Origin: Nitrosopumilus sp.
GTDB lineage: Archaea > Thermoproteota > Nitrososphaeria > Nitrososphaerales > Nitrosopumilaceae
Assembly: GCA_963662625.1 (NCBI GenBank)
Contig: OY759726.1
Location: forward strand, 1,794,699 to 1,858,698
Length of the DNA: 64,000 nucleotides
Reading direction: 5' to 3'
The position numbers and the translations under genes were made by a program. Below the pieces are notes generated by a model. It was not told where the DNA came from. It worked only from the letters and a program-made list of their open reading frames with translations, and did not search any database. This document shows, piece by piece, positions 1,911-16,125 of this stretch (its first letter is position 1; each line of letters begins with the position of its first letter).

Positions 1911-2085
1911 GACGTCCCGCCCCGCGGGATCCAGGCCGCGTCCCCAGGGCCGGCGCGGCACCGCGGGCTTTTCGGCATTCCAGACTCCCCAGGCGTACGC
2001 GCGGCCTGGCATGGAACAGCAGGCCCGCGCCGCCGGCCGGACTCGCGCGGCGGCTGGCCGCCAAGCGCAAAAAAAAAGAACGGGT

Positions 2086-3192
2086 TTACGCCCGGGTGCC
2101 CAGTCTGGATTTTGCAGAGACCGCTATGAGGCTCGTGATCGCGACGGCGAGGACTGTCATCGCTATGGTTCCGAACTCCGGGACTATCGTCGCTATGGTG
2201 TCCATCTTTGCCAGTATCGCGTCGATCTGCGCGTTCACCGCCGAAGGCGCCGCGCCGGACTTGATCATGTTCCGGAGATCCTCCCTCATCATGATCTCGA
2301 CCTCGGCCATCAGGTCTTCCTTGCCGAGATCAATCAGCGGTGCCTCGAGGAACTCGTAGTTGTCCAGGTACGCCCTTGTCGCGAGGCTCAGCGCCAGGTC
2401 ACCGTCTCCGTCGCCGTACGCCTGCTTGGCGTCTGCAAGAAGCGTCCTTATGTTTTCGACGTATGCGAGCAGGTCGTCGCCCGTGCCATCGTCTCCGGCG
2501 ATCTGGTCGATCTTGGAAAGGATCCCGCCTACCTGCGCCTCCACGGCGGACGGGTCTGCCAGCGAGCCGTAGGACGCCCATACCTGGTCATAGTATGACG
2601 CGATCTCAGTGGCGTCCCCCGGGTCAAGGTCGCCGCTTACCGTGTCGAAGATCTGCTGGGATCTCCACACGAACGCGGAACCGTCCTGGAACTCCGCCAT
2701 CTCCGTGATCGCGCCGCCGGTCACCGCCTCGCCGTACTCCGCGACCGACGTCTCGAGCAGGCCCCGCATCAGGTTTAGCTTGAATTCGGGGTCGTTGCTC
2801 AGCCGGTCGCCGACTATGGCAGCGCGGGCAGCCTCCACCGCCTGCTTTGCGTCGTCTATGGCCTGCTGCGCCTGCGCCCTCGGCACGTCCGTGGTCGCCT
2901 TGTCCTTCAGCTCCACCAGCGTGGCCTGCACCCGCGCGTCAAGCTCGGGATCGGCGGCCCTTAGCACAGGCCTCATCACGTCGTACAGCTCGGCGACGGG
3001 GTGCGTCGCGTGGGTTAGCGCAAGGGACGCGTTGCCGGCGTCCAGGTTCAGCTCGAGCGCCCTAAAGTGCCCGAGCGTCTCCTCCAGGTTGGCGGCGAGG
3101 TCGGCCTTCTCGTCATAAGATCCTGCAAATGCCAGCTGTGTCGAAGTCGCAGTGAGCATCACGAGCGTTGCCAACGCTATCAGTTTGTTCAT
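2086..3192 (-). CDS. PEFG-CTERM sorting-domain surface protein, acidic helical, probably metal(iron)-binding
   Basis: Signal peptide; C-terminal VPEFG + TM helix + basic tail; AYLDNYEFLE motif shared with the neighbouring FTR1 ectodomain. Confidence 0.85.
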   Translation of the reverse strand: MNKLIALATLVMLTATSTQLAFAGSYDEKADLAANLEETLGHFRALELNLDAGNASLALTHATHPVAELYDVMRPVLRAADPELDARVQATLVELKDKATTDVPRAQAQQAIDDAKQAVEAARAAIVGDRLSNDPEFKLNLMRGLLETSVAEYGEAVTGGAITEMAEFQDGSAFVWRSQQIFDTVSGDLDPGDATEIASYYDQVWASYGSLADPSAVEAQVGGILSKIDQIAGDDGTGDDLLAYVENIRTLLADAKQAYGDGDGDLALSLATRAYLDNYEFLEAPLIDLGKEDLMAEVEIMMREDLRNMIKSGAAPSAVNAQIDAILAKMDTIATIVPEFGTIAMTVLAVAITSLIAVSAKSRLGTRA

Positions 3193-11402: not shown

Positions 11403-11899
11403 GCCGCCGTCCCCCCGGCGCCTCGTTTGCGCCTTGATCCCGGGCGCCCCTCCAGCGCCCCCTTGAGGTTTTCCAGCGACTCCCCGTAGAACGAGCCCAT
11501 CGACTCCAGGAACTCCGCGAACCGCCGTGCCGGCATCCTCTCGCTGTTGAGGTACGACTGCCACGTCAGCCTGGCGGATCCCTCGCCCGCGGGCGCCACC
11601 GAGATCGTGGCAACGTACGCCCGCAGCGGCAGCCCCTCGGTCGCGACGTACGTCAGGCTCCTCCCCCGCTCCCAGGCGACGACGTGCTCCTCCACCTCGT
11701 TCCCGTCGTCAAACGTGATCAGCCTGACCGCGCCGACGCCACTCTTCTTCCCGGACAGGAGCGAGGTCTCCCTCACGCCGGCGGCCCATCCCGGGAGGCC
11801 CGCGATGTCGCTCACCTTCCGCCATACCCGGCCCGCCGGAGCGTTGATCGTCACCGTCCTCCTCAGGATCCCGGTGTGGGACGACGCCTTCGGTGCCAT
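11399..11899 (-). CDS. SRPBCC (polyketide cyclase/dehydrase-like) family protein
   Basis: TINAP..RVW...D...LPGW and GVGAVR pattern. Confidence 0.88.
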   Translation of the reverse strand: MAPKASSHTGILRRTVTINAPAGRVWRKVSDIAGLPGWAAGVRETSLLSGKKSGVGAVRLITFDDGNEVEEHVVAWERGRSLTYVATEGLPLRAYVATISVAPAGEGSARLTWQSYLNSERMPARRFAEFLESMGSFYGESLENLKGALEGRPGSRRKRGAGGTAA

Positions 11900-11974
11900 G
11901 AGTACCACTGGGCGTGCCGGATTTTAAATTTTGGTGATCTAACACATTTAATCCCCATGGGCGTAACGTTACAG

Positions 11975-13255
11975 ATGGTCTTCGGGTGGGGCAGGAAGAA
12001 GGAGGAGGAGCCCGGGCTGCAGGAGATGCCCGCGAGGGAGATCCCCCTGTCAGACGTCCCGCGGGTGGCCTCCGAGCTGCTCGAGCTGCGCAGGTCCCAG
12101 GCCGTCTCCGAGGTCAGGCTGTGCCGGGACCGGGCCGTCCCGCTCCTGAGCGAGGTATCCTACATAGGCAGGGAGCTCGAAAAGGACGACCTCAACGTGG
12201 AGGACATCGACAAGAACATCCGCGTGATAGTCGTCCGCGGGAAGAAGCAGGTGATCGACACCATCAGGAAGGAGATAACGGACCTGCCGGCAATATCCAG
12301 CTACGACGACGCCGTGGCGCTCAACGGCGCGCTGAACCAGGCGCTGAAGAAGGTGGGGGACGTCCTGGGGAGGCAGACGCGGGTCATACACATCTTCGCG
12401 AAGAAGTACGCCTCGAAGCTCAAGGAGATCCTGGCCGAGGTGGCGTCCATCAACGACGACGTCGGGAAGATCCTGCAGAACTTCGCCCGCTCCGACTCGG
12501 AGAACGCGGCGATCAACGGCCTGATAGGCGAGATTGCCGAGCTGGAGGGCTTTAACGCTGAGTCGAGGCAGAAGGCCTCGTCGCTGGCAGGCAGCCTCGC
12601 AGAGTGCCGGGGGAGGATCGCCGCGTGCAGGGAGTCCATCGCGGGCATAAAGTCATCCCAGGGATACGCCCGCCTGCTGGAGACGAAGGAGGCACTGGAG
12701 CGGCTCCGCGCCCAGAGGGCCAGCATGAGCGGCAGGGTGGCCGACCGGTTCACGAGGGTGTCCAGGCCCCTCGGCAGGTACGAGTACGCCTCGTCGCTCG
12801 ACAAGGAGCAGAAGGCGCTGCTCTCCGGCCTGATCCAGTCGCCCTTCGAGGTCCTCACCCCGGGCAACGAGAGGGCAATCATCGTGATACTGGAGAACGT
12901 CAAGAAGGGCGTCTCTGCGGGCTCCATATCGGTCAAGGACCGCGAGAAGGCCATCCTGCACATCACCGAGCTGGAGGACGCCCTCGGCGGCATCATCTCC
13001 GAGATCGCCGAGAACGCCTCCGGGCAGGAATCGGCCAGGGCGGCCATCGAGGAGCTGACCCCCCCGGAGCTTGCCGTGCTGGAGAAGGATCTCGCAAAGT
13101 CCACGCTCGACGAGTCTTCCGCGGAGTCCAGGATCAGGTCCCTGGGCGGCGAGGTATCCGCAAACGAGGCCAGGATACCCCGCATCGTGGGCGAGATCGA
13201 GTCGAGGCTACGCCGCTTTACCAGCACCAGGTACTCCATAACCACTGAAGACTAA
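11975..13255 (+). CDS. Coiled-coil conserved hypothetical protein
   Basis: Long ORF with host-like codon use, MVFGWGRKK start after ATTTAAT box; predicted coiled coil. Confidence 0.8.
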   Translation: MVFGWGRKKEEEPGLQEMPAREIPLSDVPRVASELLELRRSQAVSEVRLCRDRAVPLLSEVSYIGRELEKDDLNVEDIDKNIRVIVVRGKKQVIDTIRKEITDLPAISSYDDAVALNGALNQALKKVGDVLGRQTRVIHIFAKKYASKLKEILAEVASINDDVGKILQNFARSDSENAAINGLIGEIAELEGFNAESRQKASSLAGSLAECRGRIAACRESIAGIKSSQGYARLLETKEALERLRAQRASMSGRVADRFTRVSRPLGRYEYASSLDKEQKALLSGLIQSPFEVLTPGNERAIIVILENVKKGVSAGSISVKDREKAILHITELEDALGGIISEIAENASGQESARAAIEELTPPELAVLEKDLAKSTLDESSAESRIRSLGGEVSANEARIPRIVGEIESRLRRFTSTRYSITTED

Positions 13256-13283
13256 TTAGGCCATGCGCGTACCAGAACCCAGT

Positions 13284-13679
13284 ATGCTATTCGGGAAGAA
13301 GTTCGAACGGCAGGTCTCCCTGCAGAGGGACGTCCTAGACAGCATACTGTCATACTGCAAGATGAAGCACCCTAACGAGGGGATCCTGATCCTGAAGGGC
13401 AAGTCCAAGAAGGGCGACATCAGGGTGGACGGCCTGGTGATCCCCCCGTTCAACTACACGGGCCCCACGTTTGCCGGCTTCCCGCACTCGTTCCTGCCGT
13501 TTGACATGAGCTACGTCGGCAGCGTCCACTCCCACCCGAGCGGCTCTGCGGACCCCTCGATCACCGACCTGCACAACTTCTTCGGGCTGGTGTCGGTCAT
13601 AGTCAAGGCCCCGTACGAGGATGAGGACGTCTTTGCGTGGGACAGCGGGGGCAAGCCCATCAGGATCGACATAGTCTGA
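13284..13679 (+). CDS. JAB/MPN (JAMM) metalloprotease
   Basis: PNE...HSHPSGSADPSITD JAMM motif. Confidence 0.92.
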   Translation: MLFGKKFERQVSLQRDVLDSILSYCKMKHPNEGILILKGKSKKGDIRVDGLVIPPFNYTGPTFAGFPHSFLPFDMSYVGSVHSHPSGSADPSITDLHNFFGLVSVIVKAPYEDEDVFAWDSGGKPIRIDIV

Positions 13680-13919
13680 CGGCCCCGTCGTGCGTCCTTG
13701 GGGCGCCAAAGTGGAACAGCGTGGCCGCGACGCGCTGGCGGACGTGCCCTTGGCTGGGTACTCGCACCCCCCGACGGCCGCTCCTACGAAGCGTTCCTCC
13801 GGGCGCTCGTGCTCCAAACCGTGGGCATCGAGTGCTTCCCGCACGTCGTCCGTGGCCACGTCAGGCCATAGTTTCCCAGCAGCTTCCGGGCCGTCCTGGA
13901 AGCGGTCGTCGTTTGCCAT
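13680..13919 (-). pseudogene. Unknown ORF starting 2 nt after hammerhead cleavage site; apparently 3' truncated
   Basis: MANDDRFQDGPEAAGKLWPDVATDDVREALDAHGLEHERPEERFVGAAVGGCEYPAK...; frame runs on antisense into the JAB gene to a stop at 13350. Confidence 0.4.
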
Positions 13920-13967
13920 GCGACGCCGCTCGCGGCGTTTCGGCCACCGGGGCCTCATCAGGCAGGC
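13915..13967 (-). ncRNA. Type I hammerhead ribozyme (copy B)
   Basis: Minus strand: gccugc CUGAUGA ggcc-ccggu-ggcc GAAAC gccg-cgag-cggc GUC^ gcauggc; full catalytic core and stems I-III. Confidence 0.93.
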
Positions 13968-14029
13968 TGTCTGGGCGTCTTTCAAAAATTAAATACTCGG
14001 GGGTCCAACATCAGGTGGTGGGGGCTCAG
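13915..14029. repeat. 115-bp direct repeat (partner 15493-15607)
   Basis: Ungapped alignment at offset 1578, 11 mismatches by manual count; similarity resumes at 14089-14130 vs 15706-15749. Confidence 0.95.
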
Positions 14030-14108
14030 CTGGACTTTAGTCCACCTACTCTTCATCTCCAGATGAAGGGATTAGCAGTGCCAAGTTTTCATCATCGCCC
14101 TCACCATC
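14014..14108 (-). ncRNA. Box C/D-type RNA (unit B)
   Basis: Terminal stem, C AUGAUGA (14095-14089), D' CUAA (14075-14072) or CUGG (14062-14059), C' AUGAAGA (14056-14050), 20-nt guide, D CUGA (14029-14026). Confidence 0.75.
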
Positions 14109-14175: not shown

Positions 14176-14245
14176 GGCGAGGGGTCAGATCTGACAGTCA
14201 TCATCACAATGATGATCAGAAGCCGTTCTCATCATCCCCCTCGCC
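14176..14245 (-). ncRNA. Compact box C/D-type RNA with two 9-nt guides (unit C)
   Basis: GGCGAGGGG g AUGAUGA gaacggcuu CUGA ucaucauugug AUGAUGA cugucagau CUGA CCCCUCGCC: four perfect boxes and a perfect 9-bp terminal stem. Confidence 0.85.
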
Positions 14246-14643
14246 CGGTTCACCCGGCACTTGCCGGGAAATGCCGCCAACCGGCGTGACTGCCGGACCA
14301 ATTCCGGCGTGAAAACGTGAAAGGAGACGTCTTGCGTGAGACAAGACACATGGAAGAAGGCACGTAGGATGTCTCGTGTGGCATAAGACGCGGCGCCATG
14401 GTGACACTTTGGCATGTTAGATGGGGGTTTACTAGGGTCCGATTTTGTGTTTGGTGTTTTGTTCCTGTTTTGGTTGGAACGCCCACCATAACCGCGAAGG
14501 ATACTAGGGAGTTCGGGTTTTGTCGGAGCCCGCAGACGTCCTCCCCCGCAGGGTATATGGATCGCGCCGTCCCGGGGTTGCCAACGGGGCCACTGGCTGC
14601 CGGCGCGGCCGCGCCCGCGGCGCTCCTTGAACGACATGGACCG

Positions 14644-15270
14644 TCAGTCGAACAGACTGTAGAGCTGGCTGTCTGTAAGACGTGGGGCTTCGCGGGTCTC
14701 GGAGCACATGTTTGACACGTACCTGCCGTGTTCCGGAAGGTAGATGCCCTTCCCCGGAACGTATCTCCCGATGCCCTGCAGTATGCGGGCGACATCCCCT
14801 TGAGAGTGGCTCTCGGCCACTGAAGTTGCCATGGATCCCCTGCCGGGGGTTTCGCCCATCCAGGGCTCCTCAGCATGGCTTCGTTTGGTAAAAAAGGGGG
14901 CGGCTACCGCCTGCCGCCCATGCCGTCCCTGAGCCTTTGCCAGTGGGCCTTTTAGGTCCCACGACCTTTTTGGCGCAGAACTCGAGCCGCCGGAGGACCC
15001 CGCGGGGGAGGCACTCTTCCAGGTCAGACCTGGACTCCCCCGGAGCAGCTGCTCCAGAACCGCCTTGCACTTGGCCGGCCCCATGGCTTGGAATTGCTCC
15101 CTGTACCAATCGGAACCGTGGAAGTCCGGCGGGTTGCAGAACTGGCACTCCTCCCCGTACTCGTCCCCGCGGGGATTGACGTGGTCGTGCGCGTCCGCTT
15201 GATCCTTTTCGATCAGTTTGGCGGCCAGCAGGTAGTGCTCGACCACCCGAGCCGATGGGAGTTCCCCCAT
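14644..15270 (-). CDS. Hypothetical protein, possibly frameshifted continuation of 15213-15497
   Basis: 208-aa ORF with HxH...CxxC; no recognisable family. Confidence 0.4.
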   Translation of the reverse strand: MGELPSARVVEHYLLAAKLIEKDQADAHDHVNPRGDEYGEECQFCNPPDFHGSDWYREQFQAMGPAKCKAVLEQLLRGSPGLTWKSASPAGSSGGSSSAPKRSWDLKGPLAKAQGRHGRQAVAAPFFTKRSHAEEPWMGETPGRGSMATSVAESHSQGDVARILQGIGRYVPGKGIYLPEHGRYVSNMCSETREAPRLTDSQLYSLFD

Positions 15271-15497
15271 CCGGTGCCGATTGGATTCCCGGAGCCTACG
15301 TCCGTCAGTACGTCGCCGTCACTTATGGCGACAACATCGTTCTTGCAATAAAATTTGCGGGTTCGGCCCTCTGGGCCGGCTTGGGCGCGTACGGCGTCGT
15401 CGAGGCCTAGCCTCTCCTGTACGTGCTTGCAGACGCTTTTGGTTAAGAACGTCCTACCTCCTATGGAGATTTGCTTCATGACTGTTTGTTCTGCCAT
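15213..15497 (-). CDS. Hypothetical protein starting 2 nt after hammerhead cleavage site
   Basis: MAEQTVMKQISIGGRTFLTKSVCKHVQERLG...; overlaps the next ORF in another frame. Confidence 0.45.
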   Translation of the reverse strand: MAEQTVMKQISIGGRTFLTKSVCKHVQERLGLDDAVRAQAGPEGRTRKFYCKNDVVAISDGDVLTDVGSGNPIGTGWGNSHRLGWSSTTCWPPN

Positions 15498-15545
15498 GCG
15501 ACGCCGCTCGCGGCGTTTCGACCATTCAGGTCTCATCAGGCAGGC
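15493..15545 (-). ncRNA. Type I hammerhead ribozyme (copy A)
   Basis: Minus strand: gccugc CUGAUGA gacc-ugaau-gguc GAAAC gccg-cgag-cggc GUC^ gcauggc; stem II covaries with copy B. Confidence 0.93.
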
Positions 15546-15591
15546 TGCCTGGCCGTCGTTCAAAAATTAAATACTCGGGGATCCAACATCC

Positions 15592-15725
15592 GGTGGTGGG
15601 GGCTCAGTTGTCACGGCTTGAAGATGTCTCATCATTTGCGCCATGTCAGACTTTCACTGGAGTACAGCGTCGGCACTGGCATCATCATCATCGCCCTCAC
15701 TGGCATCATCATCGCCCTCACCATC
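15592..15725 (-). ncRNA. Box C/D-type RNA (unit A)
   Basis: Same terminal stem as unit B; C AUGAUGA (duplicated by a ~21-24-nt tandem duplication), D' CUGA (15649-15646), C' AUGAUGA (15635-15629), 21-nt guide, D CUGA (15607-15604). Confidence 0.8.
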
Positions 15726-15795
15726 CAAGCCGGATCAGATGGGAACGGCGCGGTCGACAAAACTTTATAAGGTTTTTGACGGTAGTTGCAGTGGA

Positions 15796-16125
15796 TTGTT
15801 CAGCTACAAGACTTATTTGATCTTCCTTTTCGTGTCACTGGCGGTCAGCATCGGCCTGCAGATGGTCCTGCCGTTCCCGTACGGCCTCGGGGTCGCGCTG
15901 GCGCTGTTCATCGCGTTCCCGCTGCTGCTCAGGAGAAAGTACATGAACCGCATGAGGGGCGGATACGGAGGCTCCGGCTCCGGCTCGTCCGGGGGCGGCG
16001 GGTTCTTCGGGCTCGGCTCGTCCGGCGGCAGCTCGGTCAGGTACGTGTGCCTCGTGTGCAACAACAAGCACAAGGGGGGCGCCTGCCCTCGCTGCGGTTC
16101 CAAGATGCAAAGGGCGGACTTTTAG
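15796..16125 (+). CDS. Membrane protein with Gly-rich linker and C-terminal zinc ribbon
   Basis: Two TM helices, CLVC...CPRCG; TTG start ~25 nt after TTTATAA. Confidence 0.8.
   Translation: MFSYKTYLIFLFVSLAVSIGLQMVLPFPYGLGVALALFIAFPLLLRRKYMNRMRGGYGGSGSGSSGGGGFFGLGSSGGSSVRYVCLVCNNKHKGGACPRCGSKMQRADF

Follow-up and report, generated by a model that had tools for sequence, protein, structure and literature searches.

Hammerhead motifs at the locus

The window analyzed here is a 64,000-nucleotide (nt) stretch of DNA from Nitrosopumilus sp., an archaeon of the ammonia-oxidizing type (assembly GCA_963662625.1, contig OY759726.1, forward-strand positions 1,794,699 to 1,858,698), and its minus strand carries three type I hammerhead motifs, each abutting the start codon of an open reading frame (ORF). 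Read along that strand, the locus consists of a small RNA (sRNA), hammerhead A1, a broken ORF1, hammerhead B1, ORF2, a conserved non-coding segment, two sRNAs and hammerhead A2. The labels A3 and B2 denote hammerheads at a second locus of the same genome, L002, and G002 denotes a congeneric genome. Scores were obtained with R1, a covariance model built from the core alone (CUGANGA to C17); since stem I is excluded from the model, a search with R1 is blind to the AUG and cannot favor it. The principal features are as follows.

15493–15545, minus strand: type I hammerhead A1; stem I 5′ strand 15545–15540, core 15539–15500, C17 at 15500, stem I 3′ strand 15499–15493; 60.9 bits.
14828–14879, minus strand: type I hammerhead B1; CUGAGGA core from 14873 to 14834, cleavage triplet AUC, C17 at 14834; 57.1 bits.
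13915–13967, minus strand: type I hammerhead A2; C17 at 13922, product GC-AUG with its A at 13919; 57.2 bits.
15213–15497, minus strand: cargo ORF of A1, MAEQTVMK..., 94 codons, the N-terminal part of ORF1.
14644–14832, minus strand: cargo ORF2 of B1, MATSVAESHSQGDVARILQ..., 62 codons, with a paralogous copy behind B2 at L002.
13350–13919, minus strand: open frame after A2, MANDDRFQ..., 189 codons, a doubtful gene.

In RNA order (15545 to 15493 and 13967 to 13915), A1 and A2 read GCCUGC, CUGAUGAG, stem II, CGAAAC, stem III, GUC and GC-AUG-GCA. A 5-nt loop closes the 4-bp stem II and a tetraloop the 6-bp stem III, and stem I is formed by GCAUGGC, which holds the AUG, pairing with GCCUGC around one bulged U. 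The AUG of A1 occupies 15497–15495 in the 3′ strand of stem I. In stem II, A2 departs from A1 by a compensatory change of A-U to G-C. B1 is predicted to be cut as AUC/C-AUG-GCA, yielding a product that starts with C-AUG (A at 14832) upstream of the 62-codon ORF. A loose pattern for the core (CTGATGAG..CGAAA..GTH) matched the window twice against 0.01 matches expected, and at least two matches were reached in none of 100 shuffles. Differences at 15036, 15266, 15491 and 15503–15511 in three DNA contig runs represent the paralogous genomic copy.

The sequence-only reading that preceded this analysis had described a GC-AUG-GCA product with its AUG at 15497 and 13919, had placed that AUG in the 3′ strand of stem I and had noted that repeat similarity ends just past it. 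Reading of the minus strand confirmed these coordinates, the GCAUGGC/GCCUGC pairing bore out the placement, and the repeat, 119 nt long, was found to stop 3 nt after the AUG. Both of the cassettes then described are real, but a third, that of B1, had been overlooked. Hammerheads adjacent to start codons are a real feature of this locus, and a stronger one than was first noted.

Support for the fold

In alignments of 5 and 10 hammerheads, the core nucleotides C3-U4-G5-A6-N7-G8-A9 and G12-A13-A14 were invariant, N7 being U, G or C. The A15.1-U16.1 pair and C17 were present in 10/10 aligned sequences, and the cleavage triplet was GUC, or AUC in B1. The topology is that of type I, with a stem II of 4 bp closed by a 5-nt loop, a stem III of 5–7 bp closed by a 3–4-nt loop, and an open stem I. 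Across the 10-hammerhead alignment, 89.2% of cells were paired in the three-helix structure, compared with 20–47% when the partners were slid. By helix, pairing reached 100% in stem II, 97% in stem III and 77% in stem I when a single register was assumed; a second register, in which one U is bulged, accounts for the rest of stem I. None of 500 column shuffles matched the observed pairing or covariation score, figures that are not probabilities because the sequences are paralogues from two genomes. The slid controls preserve this relatedness and nevertheless fail, so the support from covariation stands. Changes on both sides were found at six pairs, and the stem II pair 10.2/11.2 displayed all four Watson-Crick types. 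Beside the cut, the stem I pair 1.1/2.1 occurred as four pair types while the columns of the start-codon A, U and G were fixed within the genus. On these comparative grounds, we regard the elements as genuine type I hammerhead ribozymes.

The Rfam Hammerhead_1 model (RF00163) detected only A1 in the window, at 20 bits (E 0.26) against a cut-off of 34, and scored G002 copies at 35.4 (above the cut-off), 33.8 and 28.2 bits. The low scores of the window copies are attributable to their longer, GC-rich stem III and bulged stem I. The minimum-energy fold failed to reproduce the A-type hammerhead. Stem I is only 6 bp long and is followed by the A-rich codons 3–4, and the 10 sequences establish no conserved bulge or loop pairing with loop II, the tertiary contact on which rapid cleavage at low Mg2+ depends.

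Copies in the same genome and in relatives

A descriptor scan of the whole 1,858,698-bp genome returned seven raw candidates, five of which possess a stem I. All five lie on the minus strand (A1, A2 and B1 in the window; A3 and B2 at L002). The stem III of A3 is rebuilt from different base pairs, B2 has a CUGACGA core and the cut GUC/C-AUG, and the B-type stem I is a perfect 6-bp helix (GCCAUG/CAUGGC). Each of the five would yield a 3′ product starting with GC-AUG or C-AUG, the AUG of which belongs to the 3′ strand of stem I. With R1, these copies scored 53.9–60.9 bits, and the next best of the 18 matches in the genome scored 17.8 bits.

When 151 genomes were searched with R1, 17 genomes had matches at E ≤ 0.1, the flanks of which were then inspected. 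Hammerheads were retained in G002 (same genus), G029 (same family), G135 and G117 (same order), and G606 and G608 (other families of the order); matches in relatives at or below 23.7 bits were dropped on inspection, lacking either the core or a helix. A match in G125 looked like a true hammerhead and ended at a contig end. Searching the genera of G029 and G040 with R1 added nothing new, and the G002-type hammerhead pattern had no match in viral contigs. A search of 151 genomes of the phylum with RF00163 gave no match, even in the genome under study, and is hence uninformative. In G002, three copies scored 33.2, 32.8 and 31.1 bits, and a fourth scored 21.3 bits with filters off:

G002a: product G-AUG-GCA; stem I 5′ strand GCCAUC.
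G002b: product A-AUG-ACU; stem I 5′ strand GUCAUU.
G002c: product G-AUG-ACA; stem I 5′ strand GCCAUC.
G002d: product UU-AUG-GAA; stem I 5′ strand CCAUAA.

All four differ from the window copies in stem I and in the ORF that follows. Counting the five copies described above, all nine intact hammerheads of the genus have an AUG at +2 or +3. Beyond the genus, the sequence following the cut was different:

G029: GUG at +2, then only 11 codons.
G135: a Shine-Dalgarno (SD) sequence (GGAGGUGA), with ATG at +29.
G117: ATG at +13.
G608: ATG at +13.
G606: GTG at +7.

An ATG at +2 or +3 was found in none of the four hammerheads from G135, G117, G608 and G606. Of 80 loci listed for comparison, 11 held a credible type I hammerhead from outside the family; these had leaders of 12–34 nt or more, or bore an SD sequence, and 0/11 of these listed matches had an ATG at +2 or +3. 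Conservation of the AUG at homologous loci therefore held within the genus and not outside it. The sequence-only reading had named homologous hammerheads without the AUG as evidence against itself; we read their existence as a sign that the placement is lineage-specific.

Three related hammerheads, from G117, G608 and a metagenome-assembled genome labeled Iainarchaeum (loci L008, L175 and L031), have a stem I 3′ strand of GAGG(C/G)AA and an ATG at +13. In these, stem I contains an SD-like element in place of the AUG; the product begins with GAGG, 12 nt ahead of the ATG. G117 and G608 are two genomes of one Nitrososphaerales genus, and the three hammerheads form one homologous hammerhead-gene unit, and so count as a single observation.

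ORFs behind the cut

An ORF opens at the abutting AUG in all nine intact copies. These range from 26 to 198 codons, with individual shuffle P values of 0.0007–0.21:

A3: 198 codons from the AUG, P 0.007.
A2: 189 codons, P 0.0096.
A1: 94 codons, P 0.091.
G002c: 93 codons, P 0.0007.
B1 and B2: 62 codons, P 0.21.
G002b: 56 codons, P 0.017.
G002a: 39 codons, P 0.057.
G002d: 26 codons, P 0.15.

The 198-amino acid (aa) ORF1 of L002 has a typical GC content by codon position (0.65/0.41/0.77), and its N-terminal ~95 residues are shared with a 431-aa ORF of G040, a member of another genus (31% identity, E 1e-9). G002b and G002c are followed by ORFs for paralogous proteins that have diverged (41% identity over 41 aa, E 3e-9) and that both start with MTTxTT. 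In the window, ORF1 shows two frameshifts relative to L002, at 15213–15270 and at about 15036, and its remainder lies in another frame, from 15270 to about 14900. The second frameshift fuses the frame through hammerhead B1 into ORF2, giving a 208-aa ORF at 14644–15270. ORF1 has a second Met at codon 7. In A1 and A3, base pairing is possible between the CAUGGC of the product 5′ end and GUCAUG at codons 6–7, which includes this second Met (window 15478–15499, minus strand); the pairing competes with stem I in predicted folds, possibly as an alternative conformer affecting cleavage or the choice of start.

Initiation in the host

Start codons of the host were surveyed using 15,531 in-frame ATGs of long frames. 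AT-rich 8-mers peaked at −26/−27 from the ATG, with 444 counts compared with about 130–200 elsewhere, and no SD-like peak was seen at −5 to −15 of the same ATGs. In archaea, transcription that begins at the AUG is recognized by a TATA box ~26 nt ahead of the start codon. The survey implies that leaderless initiation is the host's default, on the strength of an indirect signature as distinct from transcription start site data. A 12-mer, TCCTGGGACGTC, recurred hundreds of times at the constant position −36 relative to in-frame ATGs, a regularity that points to a highly repetitive coding repeat in the genome.

Against this background, the leader left by the predicted cleavage is 1–2 nt in all nine intact copies, and the stretch from stem III to the AUG contains no SD-like motif. 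In the uncut RNA the AUG would be internal and paired; after the predicted cut it would be 1–2 nt from the 5′ end. Hammerhead products carry a 5′-hydroxyl (5′-OH). Lacking the 5′-triphosphate of a primary transcript, the product would function in the manner of a leaderless mRNA but would not be a canonical primary one. According to the available part of a study of Sulfolobus solfataricus, the triphosphate mimics the base at −1 (PMC11698992). The one or two extra nucleotides of the product could fill this position. The host encodes RtcB (584.7 bits).

Upstream elements and neighborhood

The sequence preceding the hammerheads includes the repeat mentioned above, an AT-rich box and candidate C/D-box sRNA genes:

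15492–15610, minus strand: copy 1 of the 119-nt repeat, comprising the end of a C/D-like sRNA, the AT-rich box and A1, and stopping 3 nt past the AUG.
13914–14032, minus strand: copy 2 of the repeat, 90% identical to copy 1.
15562–15573, minus strand: AT-only 12-mer TATTTAATTTTT, 22 nt upstream of CUGAUGAG; the box recurs at 13984–13995.
14182–14239, minus strand: C/D-box sRNA candidate with all four boxes (snoPyro_CD, 35.1 bits, cut-off 45, E 7.8e-05).
14024–14099, minus strand: C/D-box sRNA candidate directly upstream of A2 (sR39, 19.6 bits, E 0.086).
15667–15716, minus strand: weak C/D-box sRNA candidate upstream of A1 (snoPyro_CD, 16.8 bits, E 4.6).

Candidates of this kind in G002 scored 27.9–33.8 bits. 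The AT-only 12-mer could be a TATA-like box or the T5 terminator of the upstream sRNA. Genome-wide, TATA-like words start most often at −28 to −32 from the ATG. The ribozyme RNA may be transcribed either from its own promoter at the AT box or by read-through from upstream, and spacing cannot decide between the two. One and the same type of sRNA/hammerhead module precedes different ORFs, and the arrangement in the window is framed by the 119-nt repeats, as recombination between two modules would give. This layout fits exchangeable cassettes, although it is no proof of them. A reading of the repeat as an attachment site or tandem duplication was set aside as a replacement for the ribozyme; it may explain the spread of the cassettes.

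Both genomic loci adjoin restriction-modification, HerA or JAB genes and resemble a defense island. In the window, a Prok-JAB gene (13263–13679, plus strand) lies beside a 523-aa ORF without an assigned family (11684–13255, plus strand). Neighbors of L002 (L173, 10515–15996) encode a BsuBI/PstI restriction enzyme, an Eco57I-type methylase, a HerA ATPase (PADLOC 'Type III coevolved', 217 bits) and an SNase-domain protein. In G002, a 1213-aa ORF beside the cassettes resembled a type IIG restriction-modification enzyme when judged by eye only. A 160-aa ORF at window positions 15643–16125 (plus strand) has a Ser-rich N-terminus, two hydrophobic segments, a Gly/Ser-rich linker and a zinc-ribbon-like C-terminus (CxxC..CxxC); its Pfam matches were all sub-threshold. 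The non-coding segment upstream of the sRNA pair, termed X, occupies positions 14250–14640 (minus strand) in the window and about 1950–2160 (minus strand) in L002. Part of it (AACTCCCTAG..GGT.AT) recurs in the G002 contig C31 (L030, about 2900), and it has no match in Rfam.

A second conserved element, E, was observed beside the cassettes. It is ~75 nt long and reads GUGACCUGRCA, a variable arm, CAAACCNGCAAUAYC, a hairpin, CUGACAGGCAGGC..GUGUGG and a second variable arm. It is found at L002:500–582 (minus strand; about 148638–148720 of C1 in the same genome), in four copies at L030, and at L161, L162, L164 and L005:1596–1678. It is usually preceded by a T-run and stands after cassette ORFs, before the next sRNA or SD-led ORF; in G029 it lies 46 nt downstream of the hammerhead, in the same 5′ region. 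Its three nested helices covary, with 89.8% of cells paired compared with 35–62% when slid and eight pairs changing on both sides, and Rfam gave no match to it, making E a candidate for a new structured RNA. Searches with the E pattern returned no match in viral contigs and six loci in metagenome contigs; the latter were rejected as chance matches without the conserved 3′ half, and none had an R1 hammerhead.

Proposed mechanism and alternative explanations

The motif, its covariation, its recurrence before different ORFs, the position of the AUG and the leaderless signature of the genome are shown by the sequence data; that the motif is transcribed, that it is cut in vivo, that a near-leaderless RNA with a 5′-OH is translated and that any regulatory gating results are inferences. 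In the reading that we favor, to which we assign a probability of roughly 0.5, self-cleavage frees a near-leaderless 5′-OH mRNA from a longer precursor that often contains a C/D-box sRNA. The hammerhead would make up the last ~50 nt before small minus-strand ORFs. The upstream part of the precursor would be a C/D-box sRNA gene 40–60 nt away in the A-type copies and in G002a, b and c, or the preceding cistron in the B-type copies. In the folded hammerhead, the AUG would form part of one strand of stem I, and self-cleavage after C17 would release a 5′-OH mRNA beginning 1–2 nt before it. Leaderless mRNAs appear to be what the host mainly initiates on, and no SD sequence precedes the ORFs; the cut would therefore create a 5′-proximal AUG and make the ORF translatable, while uncoupling it from the upstream non-coding RNA. 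A broader version, in which a portable 5′ module (often sRNA plus hammerhead) makes any ORF fused to it translatable and keeps the AUG masked until the cut, is put forward more tentatively. In related lineages the same logic may have been applied to the SD sequence, given the GAGG at the product 5′ end in the three hammerheads described above.

Cleavage-gated translation of interchangeable cargo had been the central proposal of the sequence-only reading. It is only partly supported. It gains from the full cores, the covarying helices, the 1–2-nt leader in 9/9 copies, the leaderless signature and the variety of the ORFs; it loses ground on doubtful or frameshifted cargos in the window, a dead ribozyme before an intact ORF, the cost of a 5′-OH end and an uneven prediction of unmasking. 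The points that weigh against our reading concern, firstly, the cargo. The window copies look decayed: ORF1 (MAEQTVMK) is frameshifted relative to the intact 198-aa copy at L002, B1 has a C-A mismatch at 15.2/16.2 in stem III, and the cargo of A2 is doubtful because the MANDDRFQ frame lacks homologues and overlaps the JAB-domain gene at 13263–13679, in antisense orientation, over its last 330 nt. The cargo ORFs are orphans, for which Pfam, PHROGs, PADLOC, a word-indexed protein search, HMMER and the ESM Atlas returned themselves or nothing, and the ORF1 homologue in G040 uses an SD-type leader and has no hammerhead. Our interpretation is accordingly weaker for the A1 and A2 cargos than for the intact L002 locus and the congener. 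Also in G002, a dead hammerhead (L030:122–158, minus strand; G12 changed to U, two stem II mismatches, R1 9.6 bits) sits before an intact duplicate of the 39-codon ORF, from which it follows that an ORF can persist without an active ribozyme, at least temporarily. This dead copy has more substitutions per site in its core than in the ORF.

Other objections concern the RNA itself. Accessibility of the AUG was predicted to rise clearly after cleavage in only three of nine copies (B2, G002b and G002d), and in A1 and A3 the AUG pairs with the downstream GUCAUG. If the AT box is a promoter, transcription would be predicted to start at ~15540–15545, at or inside the 5′ strand of stem I, and such a transcript might be unable to form the ribozyme. 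In S. solfataricus, leaderless initiation complexes are reported, in the part of the study available, to be weaker with a 5′-OH than with a 5′-triphosphate (PMC11698992), and a Clp1-type 5′-OH kinase was not found in the host. No copy in the window reached the Rfam gathering score, and free-energy z-scores were unremarkable (−0.76 and −0.39). Finally, homologous hammerheads outside the genus lack the abutting AUG, and all examples are paralogues from two genomes of one genus, so that the counts are not independent. Taken together, we consider the interpretation plausible and testable, but unproven.

An alternative that we judge unlikely, though deserving of weight, is that the hammerheads serve the upstream RNA, either at the 3′ side of an sRNA precursor or in separating sRNA from mRNA or one cistron from another; the adjacency of the AUG would then reflect compact spacing, and translation would not depend on the cut. 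Seven of 11 hammerheads, with the dead copy counted, do lie 40–60 nt downstream of a C/D-box sRNA candidate, and the accessible text of PMC3088659 describes long phage transcripts in which hammerheads flank single genes. However, B1, B2 and G002d (3/10) have an ORF or plain sequence upstream in place of an sRNA and still keep the AUG at +2 or +3. Moreover, the AUG is invariant while its neighbors in stem I covary, and the uncut AUG has no SD sequence and lies far from the 5′ end, in a genome without an SD signal.

It is rather improbable that the modules represent what is left of a decaying mobile or selfish element, situated in a region resembling a defense island and of no current use to the host. 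The frameshifts and stem III mismatch in the window, the dead copy in G002, the orphan cargo ORFs and the restriction-modification, HerA and JAB neighbors would all agree with such an origin, as would the rarity of the modules, which were found with R1 in two of three genomes of the genus, with one hammerhead in one further genome of the family. Decay does not account for intact copies that retain every core nucleotide together with compensatory changes, for paralogous cargo proteins that have diverged while remaining open from the same AUG, or for a module conserved between a genome of 63% GC and a congener contig of ~40% GC.

Circularization appears more improbable again. Here, the RNAs between hammerheads would be closed by RtcB or by reversal of the hammerhead reaction, in the manner of retrozymes or viroids, and interconversion of circle and linear form would silence or re-expose the AUG at the junction. 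Segments between successive hammerheads would have 5′-OH and 2′,3′-cyclic phosphate ends, and a study of retrozymes reportedly dealt with circular RNAs. Same-strand arrays spaced 0.4–1.3 kb would supply such segments, and the presence of RtcB, with no Clp1-type kinase found, makes their ligation or circularization enzymatically possible. Stem I strands of neighboring hammerheads also appear cross-compatible: the 3′ strand of G002a pairs perfectly with the 5′ strand of G002c, and the 3′ strand of G002c (GAUGAC) fits the 5′ strand of G002b (GUCAUU) better than its own (GCCAUC). Circularization would be expected to leave such a pattern, but repeated sequence may equally account for it, and A-to-B junctions in the genome under study would leave an extra nucleotide at 1.1. 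For clustered bacterial hammerheads, Perreault et al. sought circular or spliced products and found none, so far as the accessible portion of their report extends (PMC3088659).

A chance match with no ribozyme at all is strongly disfavored: although no window copy has a gathering-level Rfam match and folding energies are no better than those of shuffles, two pattern matches occurred in 0/100 shuffles, five copies exceed 53 bits with the next best at 17.8, covariation supports the fold, and a congeneric copy passes the Rfam cut-off (35.4 vs 34).

Comparison with known systems

Our literature search, which lay outside subscription journals, returned no natural ribozyme that makes leaderless mRNAs and no hammerheads in Nitrosopumilaceae or Thaumarchaeota. 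For most hammerheads encoded in DNA, a biological role is still to be proven; the anatomy described here makes one role directly testable, since cleavage would turn a non-translatable internal AUG into a 5′-proximal AUG that an archaeon initiating on leaderless mRNAs could read. If the broader version of the interpretation is true, this would be the first natural archaeal case of a ribozyme creating a translation-initiation signal, and the ribosomes of this lineage would have to initiate on near-leaderless mRNAs with a 5′-OH. A protein-based parallel is MazF of E. coli, an endonuclease that cuts just upstream of the AUG and turns leadered mRNAs leaderless; MazF is a protein toxin and not a cis-acting ribozyme, and it operates in a bacterial stress response.

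The clustered type I, II and III hammerheads of Perreault et al. (2011) are, in the portion of the report at hand, likewise DNA-encoded, located on the coding strand between or before varied genes, and arranged in tandem, and those of prophages and bacteria were proposed to cut long transcripts into gene-length mRNAs (PMC3088659). The hammerheads described here differ from them in being cut 1–2 nt before an AUG that lies in stem I, in residing in a Nitrosopumilaceae archaeon, and in having C/D-box sRNA genes directly upstream. The same source describes HHphage of the haloarchaeal viruses HF1 and HF2, which shares the archaeal setting and a position just upstream of the first ORF of the transcript. 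There, the hammerhead lies 13 nt before the start codon and the transcript 5′ end was mapped within 3 nt of the cut, suggesting activity in vivo; the differences are a start codon outside stem I, a salt-dependent core variant, and a viral rather than chromosomal location (PMC3088659).

In chryso- and fusariviruses, type I hammerheads occupy the 5′ untranslated region and their cleavage is needed for cap-independent translation, according to the available text of PMC13725137, which also cites hepatitis delta virus-like ribozymes at the 5′ ends of retrotransposons. As proposed here, self-cleavage upstream of an ORF is tied to initiation on the 3′ product. These are, however, eukaryotic RNA viruses with long untranslated regions and, in that text, a mechanism described as unknown, whereas the archaeal case offers a simple candidate mechanism; if that mechanism is true, small ribozymes would be linked to prokaryotic translation initiation in parallel with the eukaryotic RNA viruses.

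A further likeness is a laboratory one. Leaderless mRNAs starting at the AUG have been made with a 5′ hammerhead, in constructs that, as the available part of PMC11698992 describes them, comprise a promoter, a hammerhead and a 5′-OH mRNA beginning at or near the AUG. Those constructs are engineered, and the natural products would differ in keeping 1–2 extra nucleotides. Confirmation of our reading would show whether archaeal ribosomes accept 5′-OH near-leaderless mRNAs, and would reveal a compact natural means of co-expressing an sRNA and an mRNA from one transcript, in a layout that matches the engineered leaderless constructs.

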